A stretch of DNA of 64,000 nt from an uncultured Chloroflexaceae bacterium (lineage in GTDB: Bacteria > Chloroflexota > Chloroflexia > Chloroflexales > Chloroflexaceae), in NCBI GenBank assembly GCA_964575355.1, contig CAZNQP010000007.1, forward strand, positions 5,038-69,037, read 5' to 3'. The notes beneath the pieces were generated by a model, which had not been told where the DNA came from, did no database searches, and saw only the letters and a program-made list of their open reading frames with translations. Positions 3,345-18,168 of this stretch are shown piece after piece (within the stretch, counting starts at the first letter, position 1; each line of letters begins with the position of its first letter). The position numbers and the translations under genes are program-made.

Positions 3345-3929
3345 GTGGCACGCAATAGACGATTGGTAAGCCCGGAAACGCTCGAACTGACCGAGCGTGT
3401 TGTCCAAATCAACCGGGTGTCAAAAGTAGTGAAGGGCGGTCGTCGCTTTAGCTTCAGCACCATTGTGGTAGTGGGTGATGGCGACGGGCACGTTGGCGTG
3501 GGCATGGGCAAATCCGCCGAGGTGCCCGAGTCGATCCGTAAGGCAATTGAAGCCGCCAAGAAAAGTATGATCCGGGTGCCGATGGTCAACAGCACCATCC
3601 CGCACGAGGTCGTGAGCAAGTTTGCGTCGTCGAAGGTGATGCTGCGCCCTGCCGCCCCCGGTACGGGGGTCATCGCGGGGAGCGGGGTTCGTGCCGTGCT
3701 CGAAGCCGCTGGGGTGCGCGACATTCTGACCAAAGCCTACGGCAGCAACAATTCGGTCAACGTTGTGAAGGCAACCTATCAGGCACTGTCCGAGTTGGTA
3801 TCGCTCGAAGAAGTTGCCCGCAAGCGCGACCTCACGCCATACGAGTTGCGGATGCGCGTGTTCCGGCGCGAACTCCCGGCAGCCCCGGTGGTAACCGGCG
3901 CAGACGACGAGGAGACGAGCGATGAGTAA
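3345..3929 (+). CDS. rpsE: 30S ribosomal protein S5
   Basis: GTG start after [21 protein letters not shown]...VVGDG.G.VG.G.GKS.EV are typical S5. Modest C-terminal extension. Confidence 0.95.
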
Positions 3930-15105: not shown

Positions 15106-16128
15106 ATGACGACGCAACGGGCACGCTATGCCGCCATTACCGGATGGGGGATGGCAGTGCCCGACCGTGTTGTCACCAATGCCGAACTTGCCCACACCCT
15201 CGACACGTCGGACGAGTGGATACGGAGCCGCACGGGTATCGCCGAGCGGCGCATTGCTGCCCCCACTGAACCCACCTCACTGTTTGCCACCCGCGCCGCC
15301 CGTGCCGCGCTTGCGGCGGCAGGCATAGACCCCGCACAGGTAGACCTCGTGATTGTGGCAACCTGTACGCCCGATCTCCCCTTCCCGGCGACGGCGTGCC
15401 GCGTCCAAGCCGACCTCGGCAGCAGGCACGCGGGCGCGTTCGACGTGGTGGCGGCATGCAGTGGCTTCGTGTATGGGCTGAGTGTCGCCACCAGCATGAT
15501 CCAGAGTGGTGCCCACGATACGGTTGTACTGGTCGGGGCTGATCTGTTTAGCCGTATCCTCAATTGGCAAGACCGCGCCACCTGTGTCCTGTTTGGCGAC
15601 GGCGCAGGTGCGGTGGTGCTAGAGGCAAGCACCGCCCCAGCGGGTGCCCTGCACACGCTTCTGCGTTCGCGCGGCGAGGACGAGAGCCTGATGGAAATTG
15701 CGGCAGGCGGCACACGGTTGCCGCTCACACCAGAGCTATTCGCGGCGCAACAGCACACGTTCACCATGCAGGGGCGTGAGGTGTTTCGCTTTGCGGTGCG
15801 CGAGATGGCAGACCTCGCCCTAGAGACACTCGCCCAAGCCGATGTCAGCCTCGCCGATGTGCGCCTTGTTGTGCCCCACCAAGCCAACCTCCGCATCTTA
15901 GACGCATTGGCGAAGCGGCTCGCCCTGCCACCTGAACGCATCGTAGCGAACCTCGACCGCTACGGCAACACCTCGGCGGCATCCATCCCCATCGCACTCC
16001 ACGAAGCCGCCGCCAGCGGGCGACTGGCGGCGGGAGACTTGCTGCTGTTGTTGGCAGCTGGTGGCGGGCTAACGTGGGGGGCATCGCTGGTGCGCTGGAC
16101 TGCGCCCACCTCACCGCACCAAGCATAA
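15106..16128 (+). CDS. fabH: 3-oxoacyl-ACP synthase III
   Basis: TSDEWI..RTGI..R, active-site AACSGF, PHQAN.RI, GNTSAAS. Confidence 0.95.
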   Translation: MTTQRARYAAITGWGMAVPDRVVTNAELAHTLDTSDEWIRSRTGIAERRIAAPTEPTSLFATRAARAALAAAGIDPAQVDLVIVATCTPDLPFPATACRVQADLGSRHAGAFDVVAACSGFVYGLSVATSMIQSGAHDTVVLVGADLFSRILNWQDRATCVLFGDGAGAVVLEASTAPAGALHTLLRSRGEDESLMEIAAGGTRLPLTPELFAAQQHTFTMQGREVFRFAVREMADLALETLAQADVSLADVRLVVPHQANLRILDALAKRLALPPERIVANLDRYGNTSAASIPIALHEAAASGRLAAGDLLLLLAAGGGLTWGASLVRWTAPTSPHQA

Positions 16129-16139
16129 CCCAATAGCTA

Positions 16140-16609
16140 AGCTACAGAAGACCCACCTGCATAGCACCATCAACTGAACAGGTAGGGCAGTGACCTTCTG
16201 ACAGGTGTCACTCGTGTGTATCGTGACACGCCTGTGAGAGAGATGTCGTTCTCGACCTCGCGGCATTGTTGTTGCGCCTACGCTCGAACTTTGCTGCCCC
16301 GTTGCACCGTATCACAGGTCTTGCGTGCAAAGCAGTGGTACTGTCAGAAACCGTACTTCAGCTTCCACTTTTGTGCAGGAGAGCTAAACGTCGCTCGCCG
16401 TACAAACCGTACTCCAACTCATACTCCGGGGTGTCAGTCACACCTCCGGTTATCGCTTCATCCGTTAGCCGGGTCTTCACATCGGCTTACCTACTTCTGC
16501 ACCATACTTGCTACTCGTTTTGTTTCTCTTGATCCGAAAGCCTTGCGGGACTGGTGCGGTGCGTCCTGTTCAGTTGTTAAGGTGTGTGCTGTGGTGTTCT
16601 TCTGTAGCT
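16140..16609. other. inverted-repeat-closed non-coding element (candidate large structured RNA or MITE)
   Basis: 16140-16151 is the exact reverse complement of 16598-16609, and 16171-16182 of 16565-16576. Internal hairpins present. G+C visibly lower. Only nonsense ORFs. Lies between convergent genes. Confidence 0.45.
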
Positions 16610-16650
16610 TGGTAGTAGTATAGCACCCACCCACACCCCCATGCAAGCAT

Positions 16651-18168
16651 CTATCGTGCTTTAACGATTATGGACGCAAGCGCACGCCCCGACAGCAACG
16701 CCAGCGGAATACCGCCGCCGGGGTGGGTGCCGCCGCCCACAAAATAGAGGTTGGCAACGTCGCGGGCACGCTGCGGCGGGCGCAAAAACGCGGCAAAGCG
16801 GTTGTTCGATGCCAGCCCATAGATCGCCCCCGCCGACGCGTTGTAGCGCGTGGCAAGGTCAGCAGGGGTTCGGATGACCTCATGCGTGATATGCTGGCGC
16901 AGGTCGTGTAGCCCCATCTGCTCGAGGCGGCGCAGCACCACATCCCGATAGGCGGGAGCTTCGCGCTCCCAGTTGACCCGCCCGTTCAGGGCGGGGGCAT
17001 TCACCAGCACAAACATATTCATGTGTCCCGGCGGGGCGTGCTCCGCATCGGTGATGGACGAGGTACACACATAGATTGTCGGGTTGGCGGCGGGCACACC
17101 GTGCGCGAACAGCGCGGCAAACTCGCCGGGGTAGTCGCGGCTGAAAAAAATGCTGTGGTGCGCCAATTGCTCATACTGGCGAGCTACCCCTAGCAGCAGC
17201 ACAAAGCCACTACACGACGGCTCTTGCTGCACCAGCCGCCGCGCCCACGGCTGCGGGGTGGGCAACATCTGCTCGTACACATAGCGCGGGTCGGCATTGG
17301 CAACCACCACATCGGCAACGTGGTGCTGCCCCGCCACCGTGACAGCACCCGTCACGCGCCCCTGCTGCTGCACCAGTTGCTGCACCGGGGTATTCAGTTG
17401 CACGTCCACACCGAGGTCGCCCGCGAGTTGTTGCAACGCCTCAGCTAGGCGATACATACCGCCCCGGATGTACCACCCGCCCGTCGCAAACTCGATGAAG
17501 GCAATCACATTGAAGGTCGCCGGGGTCAGGTAGGGCGACGAGCCATTGTAGGTAGCGTAGCGGTTGAAGACCTGCCGCAGGTAGGGGCTGGTAAAGAAGC
17601 TCTGCACCGCTTGATCGAGCGTGCGGAAGGCATCAATACGCGGACCGTCGCGCATGAGGCGCGGGTTGAACATGCTGCGGAACCCGGCGAACGGCTGGTA
17701 CAGAAATGGCTCGCTCACACTGTCGTATATCTGGCTGGCATACGCAAGAAAGCGCAGCATCCCGTTCACATCGGCGGGGCTGATGCGCTCGATCTCGTGT
17801 AGCAGGCGCGGCAGGCTCTGCCATGCGTCAAACTGCGTCCCATCGTCCCAGAAGTAGCGGCAAGTCGGCTCGACAGGCACAATGTCGAGGTAGTCGTCGG
17901 CATTGCGCCCCGCCAGCGCGAACAGGTCGCGCACAACCCACGGCATCGTAAAGAGTGACGGACCGGTATCGTAGGTATAGCCTGCCTGCTGGTAGATGTC
18001 GAGCTTGCCACCGACGCGCTCATTCTTTTCGAGCACGGTAACGGCATAGCCCGCCACCGCAAGATGGATCGCCGCCGACAAGCCACCCAACCCTGCCCCG
18101 ATGACAAGGGCAGTAGGACGGGCGGGGGGCGTGTACGCACCACGGGGGGGGGCGTGTGTTTCAATCAC
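16651..18168 (-). CDS. phytoene desaturase (CrtI) family FAD-dependent oxidoreductase
   Basis: GTG after AGGAG. N-terminal Rossmann motif VIGAGLGGLSAAIHLA..G..V.VLEKN...GGK. 505 aa. C-terminal FVGGGTHPGGG. Confidence 0.88.
   Translation of the reverse strand: MIETHAPPRGAYTPPARPTALVIGAGLGGLSAAIHLAVAGYAVTVLEKNERVGGKLDIYQQAGYTYDTGPSLFTMPWVVRDLFALAGRNADDYLDIVPVEPTCRYFWDDGTQFDAWQSLPRLLHEIERISPADVNGMLRFLAYASQIYDSVSEPFLYQPFAGFRSMFNPRLMRDGPRIDAFRTLDQAVQSFFTSPYLRQVFNRYATYNGSSPYLTPATFNVIAFIEFATGGWYIRGGMYRLAEALQQLAGDLGVDVQLNTPVQQLVQQQGRVTGAVTVAGQHHVADVVVANADPRYVYEQMLPTPQPWARRLVQQEPSCSGFVLLLGVARQYEQLAHHSIFFSRDYPGEFAALFAHGVPAANPTIYVCTSSITDAEHAPPGHMNMFVLVNAPALNGRVNWEREAPAYRDVVLRRLEQMGLHDLRQHITHEVIRTPADLATRYNASAGAIYGLASNNRFAAFLRPPQRARDVANLYFVGGGTHPGGGIPLALLSGRALASIIVKAR

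Follow-up and report, generated by a model that had tools for sequence, protein, structure and literature searches.

A stand-alone gene for a large structured RNA is predicted between convergent fab and crtI-like genes in Chloroflexales-like bacteria

Two genes that converge on one another share no need for upstream sequence between them, and a preliminary description of the stretch of DNA analysed here (64,000 nucleotides, hereafter the window) accordingly held that the spacer between fabH and an amine-oxidase/phytoene-desaturase-family (crtI-like) gene needs no promoter, so the question raised by this locus is what its 522 bp are for. Both stops lie where that description placed them, at 16128 for fabH (plus strand) and at 16651 for the crtI-like gene (minus strand), and on a crude gene map the gap between them is the widest in the window. 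The spacer is also poorer in G+C than its surroundings, as had been claimed (0.529 compared to 0.618 for the 64-kb window; a recount of 16321-16380 again gives 29 G+C). The identical 522 bp recurs in L013, a Logan assembly made independently from run SRR7048223, so the spacer is no assembly artefact. The preliminary description offered two candidates for its content, a large structured RNA or a MITE, and the features on which our analysis bears are collected in Table 1.

Table 1. Positions of the features discussed, in window coordinates unless a relative's locus is named, with the spacers of the relatives. RNA strands are given as the predicted transcript.
Feature	Position	Strand	Remarks
fabH	15106-16128	+	ACP_syn_III domains
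Spacer between two 3' ends	16129-16650		522 bp
Amine-oxidase/phytoene-desaturase-family (crtI-like) gene	16651-18168	-	convergent on fabH
Palindrome ATCGTTAAAGCACGAT (ATCG-N8-CGAT)	16653..16668	.	6 nt upstream of -35 box; candidate regulator-binding site
-35 box TTGCAT	16641..16646	-	18-nt spacer
Extended -10 box TGcTATACT	16617..16625 (-10 16617-16622)	-	ends 6 nt before P1
Predicted ncRNA gene, 472 nt	16139..16610	-	5' end ~16610; final paired base 16139
P1 5' strand AAGCUACAGAAGA	16598..16610	-	outer block of the preliminary description
P2 region, 5' strand	16577..16597	-	interrupted: C, CCAC, GCA, CACC; then conserved unpaired UUAA
P3 5' strand CAACUGAACAGG	16565..16576	-	homologous to CAGCC(GAA) of relatives; inner block of the preliminary description
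P4 5' strand GCACCGCAC	16554..16562	-	closes central domain
P4 3' strand (GUG...CGGUGC)	16304..16315	-	closes central domain
3' domain with conserved blocks CAGCAAAGUUCGA and CGAGAACGA	16165..16298	-	covariance model R1 match
Junction helix of 3' domain, 5' strand GGGGCAG	16294..16300	-	
P8 5' strand GUUC	16286..16289	-	relatives GCUC
P8 3' strand GAAC	16248..16251	-	relatives GAGC
Junction helix of 3' domain, 3' strand CUGCCCU	16184..16190	-	
P3 3' strand CCUGUUCAGUUG	16171..16182	-	homologous to (AGUA)GGCUG of relatives; inner block of the preliminary description
P2 region, 3' strand	16152..16170	-	GGUG, UGC, GUGG, G
P1 3' strand UCUUCUGUAGCUU	16139..16151	-	outer block of the preliminary description
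GAA/AGUA flanks of P3	L015:3504-3511 + 3836-3844		same positions in L016, L017, L022
L014			spacer 529 bp; fab-side gene fabH
L015			spacer 830 bp; fab-side gene fabD
L016			spacer 673 bp; fab-side gene fabD
L017 (same as L018-L020)			spacer 556 bp; fab-side gene fabG
L022			spacer 738 bp; fab-side gene fabG
L023			spacer 794 bp; fab-side gene fabG

The spacer contains two nested long-range inverted repeats. The outer one is perfectly complementary, as first described, but its arms (the P1 strands of Table 1) extend one base further than the 12 nt given then, to 13 nt at 100% complementarity, while the inner one (the P3 strands; 12 nt, 100% complementary) was recovered by our repeat search exactly as reported. 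Dinucleotide shuffles of the 522-bp spacer gave a long-range inverted repeat of at least 12 nt in 7 of 1000 cases and two such repeats in none of 1000, and neither motif occurs a further time within the 64-kb window. The partial pairing that had been proposed for the 19/21 nt between the blocks was upheld, with runs of 1+4+3+4 bp that join the two repeats into an interrupted closing helix of 37 bp.

Our search for the same arrangement elsewhere used contigs retrieved via relatives of the CrtI-like protein and yielded seven distinct sequences including the window. In all seven lineages the crtI-like gene converges on the 3' end of a fab operon across a long spacer, and a homologous element of 400-470 nt is present in this same spacer in the six other, Chloroflexales-like lineages, whose CrtI-like and FabH proteins are 62-69% and 60-65% identical, respectively, to those of the window. 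Each relative's spacer holds a long-range inverted repeat enclosing 370-445 nt, and several of these spacers share significant nucleotide similarity. The window copy is the most divergent of the seven sequences. An nhmmer model built from the six relatives without the window nevertheless had its sole match within the 64 kb at 16515-16672 on the minus strand (E=1.5e-9), a stretch that includes the palindrome and promoter, the 5' strands of P1-P3 and the beginning of the central domain, and a covariance model of the six relatives' 3' domain (R1) likewise had a single, full-length match in the window (16165-16298, minus strand, 20 bits, E=1.3e-3). The closest FabH and CrtI-like proteins outside the window's organism are only ~70% identical, which makes the lineage a rather isolated one; named matches from the Chloroflexales came from Oscillochloris, Chloroploca, Viridilinea, Kouleothrix and Chloroflexaceae.

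The fab genes next to the element differ between lineages. The adjoining operon consists of fabH only in the window and L014, of fabH-fabD in L015 and L016 and of fabD-fabG-fabG in L017, L022 and L023, and neither fabD nor fabG was found elsewhere within the 64-kb window. The pattern suggests that fab genes were repeatedly lost or relocated at the junction with the RNA while the RNA gene stayed in place. At a locus where the crtI-like gene faces rpmF and no fab gene is present (L021) the element was not found, and the RNA models had no match at the locus of a canonical fabH-fabD-fabG-fabG operon (L001). The latter belongs to the genome (L001/L002, GCA_964626155.1) that carries the closest FabH (70% identity) and derives from the same run, SRR7048223, as the window's organism; its fab operon is followed by Uma2-family and BglII restriction-modification genes. 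In two relatives, tandem repeats or hairpins of ~25 nt lie directly 3' of the RNA's 3' arm (L022:5031-5100, L023:5153-5222; an example of the unit, TTGCTTGTGGTCAAGCA, is present twice), and such repeats are absent from the window.

The ends of the element pair with each other in every lineage. When the first 50-55 nt of each element were folded against its last 60-80 nt, an interrupted terminal duplex of 29-37 bp was obtained in all seven (z=-5.8 to -8.4 compared to shuffles). In a hand alignment P1 is paired at 10 of 10 positions in each of the seven lineages, and every one of these 10 columns has at least two Watson-Crick pair types across lineages, and the P1 sequences fall into at least four unrelated versions (CUACAGAAGA, ACAGGCAGAC, GUCCUGAGAG and GCCUYAAGRG). 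The preliminary description had proposed covariation of the closing helices as a check, and all 10 outer-helix columns do covary across the seven lineages, as a count and not as a formal R-scape result. P3 reads CAGCC/GGCUG in five lineages, AGUUGAAC/GUUCAACU in L014 and CAACUGAACAGG/CCUGUUCAGUUG in the window, the last two differing by double compensatory changes in two columns. Covariation thus shows that the first ~46 nt and the last ~44 nt of the element pair to form a terminal stack, P1-P2-P3, which in the window is interrupted and 37 bp long. The flanks of P3 in L015, L016, L017 and L022, GAA on the 5' strand and AGUA on the 3' strand, are the sequence signature of the sarcin-ricin/loop-E (bulged-G) module; the window and L014 have plain Watson-Crick pairs (GAAC/GUUC) at these positions.

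The complete structure was pieced together from an RNAalifold consensus of the four best-aligning sequences, the covariance model of the 3' domain, the folding of the end duplexes and hand-aligned P1, P3 and P4; a MAFFT and RNAalifold analysis of the three most divergent sequences (window, L014 and L023) misaligned the ends and was left out. The four-sequence consensus has 91 pairs in 14 helices, with 93.4% of cells paired. The covariation counts rest on seven distinct related sequences and are indicative rather than formal phylogeny-aware R-scape statistics: in the four-sequence consensus both sides have changed in 27 of the 91 pairs, compared to 11.9±2.5 in column shuffles (0 of 500 reach the observed count), and only 4-7 double-changed pairs are found when the partners are slid by 1-3 columns. 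Aligning all seven sequences to the covariance model of the 3' domain gave 92.1% paired cells, and 8 of 23 pairs have changed on both sides, a number reached by 0 of 500 shuffles; in the junction helix of this domain 4 of 5 pairs are double-changed. P4 is paired 6/6 in all seven lineages although all six columns vary, and P8 carries a compensatory C-G to U-A change that is unique to the window (GCUC/GAGC to GUUC/GAAC). Several unpaired or junction strands are near-invariant, namely YUNAA before P3, CAGCAAAGCUCGA, CGAGAGCGAAGCC and GGAUACUG.

Folding the window RNA alone recovered P1-P3, P4, the junction helix and P8, and the minus-strand fold has a z-score of -4.88. Three of the four local hairpins described earlier (16201-16235, 16426-16449 and 16467-16487) are present in the minimum-free-energy fold; the fourth, at 16301-16329, is not, its sequence pairing long-range instead. 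The direct repeat that had been noted at 16348 and 16404 was found again (16348-16363 / 16404-16419; 16 nt, 88% identity). On the RNA strand it corresponds to two copies of AGUACGGUUU, each placed by the minimum-free-energy prediction in a local stem of the central domain. L014 and L023 have a counterpart for the second copy alone (GGUUUCU), which makes the first look like a duplication specific to this lineage.

Outside the 5' arm, 6-11 nt before it, all seven loci carry a TG-extended sigma-70 promoter on the crtI-sense (window minus) strand, with the consensus -35 TTGAYT (TTGCAT in the window), a 17-18-nt spacer and an extended -10 of TGnTATRMT. The view that this spacer needs no promoter therefore does not stand, as the motifs conserved at all seven loci indicate a promoter that would belong to the RNA gene itself. 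Among random 80-mers taken from these sequences, just 2.5% contain a TG-extended promoter of equal quality. A promoter scan independently called the L017 and L023 promoters; it did not call that of the window, where the -35 box (TTGCAT) is weak. Another 6-7 nt upstream of the -35 box, all seven loci have an ATCG-N8-CGAT palindrome. In the window and L014 the palindrome overlaps the last five codons and the stop of the crtI-like ORF; at the other loci the crtI-like stop lies more than 100 nt before it. The strand is also indicated by the fold, since the consensus reaches -87.8 kcal/mol and 91 pairs in the sense direction compared to -67.8 kcal/mol and 75 pairs in the antisense direction, and the helices contain 32 G·U cells compared to 7 A·C cells. 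Judged by these signals, the RNA is encoded on the minus strand, in the same sense as the crtI-like gene, and runs from ~16610 to ~16139 (predicted ends), its start being placed at the first P1 base by the position of the -35 box (16641-16646) and of the TG and -10 elements (16617-16625). No intrinsic terminator was called after the 3' arm in the window, nor is this arm followed there by the U-run that L015 and L017 have.

As far as comparison of the seven loci can establish it, the element is single-copy, syntenic and non-coding, 400-470 nt long, and has a conserved promoter and an extensively covarying multi-helix fold. Its homologues share what is generally found in structured non-coding RNAs, a common fold with compensatory changes and no conserved reading frame. 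Of the two candidates first put forward, the large structured RNA has the support of shared position in the relatives, covariation, the conserved promoter and the absence of coding signal, and we consider it highly probable that the spacer harbours a stand-alone minus-strand gene for a large, highly structured non-coding RNA. The best reading is that this RNA would be independently transcribed and previously uncatalogued, making it a candidate for a new class of large bacterial RNA.

Transcription would begin at ~16610 from the TG-extended sigma-70 promoter, as the conserved sequence suggests, and the ATCG-N8-CGAT palindrome upstream of the -35 box is probably bound by a regulator, that is, a candidate operator. 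In the predicted structure the terminal stack would open to a three-way junction with two arms, one being the central domain closed by P4 and the other the 3' domain, closed by a covarying helix of 5-7 bp and bearing the near-invariant strands CAGCAAAGCUCGA and CGAGAGCGAAGCC. With both ends buried in a long helix the RNA may be protected from exonucleases in the way that other stable RNAs are, and the conserved junction nucleotides may together make up a tertiary core, either a binding site for a protein or ligand or itself catalytic. The RNA would be expected to act in trans, given that it has no co-oriented gene downstream and faces different fab genes in different lineages. From its size, its invariant junctions and a regulated promoter of its own, our best guess is that it serves as a ribonucleoprotein scaffold, with a catalytic RNA as a minority possibility. 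A more specific proposal, that the element represents a new large-RNA class whose three-way-junction core is catalytic or self-assembling, either a ribozyme or an RNA-only architecture resembling the ROOL/GOLLD cages, appears to us unlikely.

The position of the element also invites the explanation that it serves its convergent neighbours in cis, as a bidirectional terminator or insulator, as an extended 3' UTR belonging to the crtI-like gene or as an antisense regulator reading into the fab operon. It is enclosed by two convergent 3' ends, with 10 nt separating it from the stop of fabH in the window and 3 nt from that of fabG in L017, and it adjoins the crtI-like gene at all seven loci. Since no terminator follows it in the window, antisense read-through to fabH is possible. 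We regard this explanation as improbable all the same. The element has its own conserved promoter with a predicted start at the 5' arm and so is not merely a crtI 3' UTR, its more than 90 conserved base pairs and invariant junctions far exceed what termination or antisense action would need, and the facing fab gene varies (fabH, fabD or fabG), which leaves no constant antisense target. A 10-nt perfect inverted repeat (CACCGCACCA/TGGTGCGGTG) connects the 3' end of fabH (16112-16121) with the 5' strand of P4 (16552-16561); as both RNAs carry this sequence in the same sense, they could pair only via read-through of the ncRNA antisense to fabH, and the repeat may be a chance match.

A stand-alone RNA gene might still belong to a family already known, having diverged so far that Rfam misses it, and RNase P RNA, a 6S/Ms1-like RNA, tmRNA and SRP RNA were considered for this reason. 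Typical size, a strong promoter, a terminal helix and housekeeping surroundings at the end of a ribosomal-protein/fab supercluster would all suit such an RNA. The preliminary description had recommended a search of Rfam, and with Rfam 15 no family was matched in the whole window at the gathering score, only chance miRNA-type matches (E ~1-10) appeared in 16000-16800 at E up to 10, and the loci of the seven relatives had no match at E up to 0.1. ARAGORN found no tRNA or tmRNA in the window and none in eight loci. The failure of the preliminary description to recognise RNase P, tmRNA, 6S or a group II intron is thereby borne out by Rfam and ARAGORN, and the Rfam models of 6S, SRP RNA, OLE, ROOL, GOLLD, HEARO and raiA were likewise unmatched in the window or its relatives. 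RNase P RNA (rnpB) resembles the element in size, own promoter, paired ends, multi-domain core and housekeeping neighbourhood. The P4 strands of RNase P are GAGGAAAGUCC and ACAGAAxCCGGCUUA. These strands are absent from the element, the RNase P covariance models (RF00010/RF00011) have no match, and both strands of the terminal stack, the 3' strand included, are continuous, in contrast to the P1/P2/P4 arrangement of RNase P, which the P4 3' strand interrupts. For tmRNA, neither ARAGORN nor Rfam detected a tRNA-like acceptor and T-arm with a tag frame. 6S RNA and Ms1 share with the element a long interrupted closing stem formed from both ends and a strong sigma-70 promoter, but the element is two to three times longer and matches no Rfam model, and in place of the single open-promoter-like bubble of the 6S rod its centre consists of two folded domains. 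A divergent member of a known family thus seems very improbable, and no description of such an RNA was found in the literature.

The second of the original candidates was a MITE or transposon relic, in which the 44-nt imperfect arms would be terminal inverted repeats for a transposase. The shape fits, as the element is ~470 bp long and non-coding with inverted ends and a G+C content below that of its surroundings, and it sits at a break in fab-operon synteny. The copy number and target-site duplications, which the preliminary description had wished to see checked, speak against it: there is one copy in the window and no duplication, the flanks being ...CCAATAGCT and GGTAGTAGT... (...AATAGCT/AAGCTAC... 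and ...GTAGCTT/GGTAGTA...). A scan for the terminal pattern GCTACAGAAGAN{15,25}CAACTGAACA in one genome per species (185,579) and 241 million metagenome records gave 2 genome and 8 metagenome matches, all of them single arms in unrelated AT-rich DNA and none a true copy, and blastn of the spacer against plasmids and phages gave no match. Scanning viral contigs with the conserved motif of the 3' domain produced one match, which lies inside a phage ORF and was rejected as chance. A MITE would also not explain vertical inheritance at one locus in seven lineages, interior helices that covary or a conserved promoter, and the arms differ in sequence yet stay complementary, the opposite of a transposase-binding repeat, whose sequence would be kept. 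We therefore reject the MITE, to which we give next to no probability. Equally remote is the possibility that the spacer encodes a small protein or is a degenerate pseudogene, for instance what is left of fabD. Plus-strand ORFs of 135 and 88 aa do exist in it, and fabH is not followed by fabD or fabG. However, none of the ORFs matches Pfam, tblastn with the L001 FabD, FabG and following hypothetical protein found nothing in the spacer, the seven homologues differ in where their longest ORFs lie and in the frame and strand of these, tblastx similarity is distributed equally over all frames, and the indels between homologues are not multiples of three.

The reading that we prefer, a separate gene for a large non-coding RNA, would add to a small group, as large bacterial RNAs this rich in conserved structure are rare and the known classes (RNase P, tmRNA, group I/II introns, OLE, ROOL, GOLLD, raiA and HEARO) each opened new biochemistry. 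The predicted gene model is clear: besides a promoter and a candidate operator it has a start, a terminal stack and two domains, and its place on the chromosome is fixed in filamentous anoxygenic phototroph-like Chloroflexales. The element also shows that a seemingly "empty" spacer at the end of a ribosomal-protein/fab supercluster is under selection while the neighbouring fab genes have repeatedly been lost or moved.

Among the known systems, the msr-msd ncRNA of retrons is similar in that promoter-proximal and distal inverted repeats (a1/a2 in the retron) bracket a structured RNA. No reverse-transcriptase gene follows the element, however, the downstream gene being the convergent fabH and the neighbours encoding FabH and an amine-oxidase-family protein, and the element is about twice the usual length of a retron ncRNA. 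The element also resembles OLE, ROOL, GOLLD, raiA and HEARO, which likewise exceed 400 nt, have many covarying helices and invariant junction nucleotides, contain no ORF, are restricted in phylogenetic range and were found as unusually long, G+C-poor intergenic regions. The element matches none of their Rfam models and comes from a different phylum (Chloroflexales-like bacteria). Whereas ROOL and GOLLD are phage- or tRNA-associated, it is chromosomal, single-copy and syntenic, and it is without the IS200/605 genes beside which HEARO is found. What sets it apart from all five is a layout of its own, in which a terminal stack of ~35 bp leads into a three-way junction.
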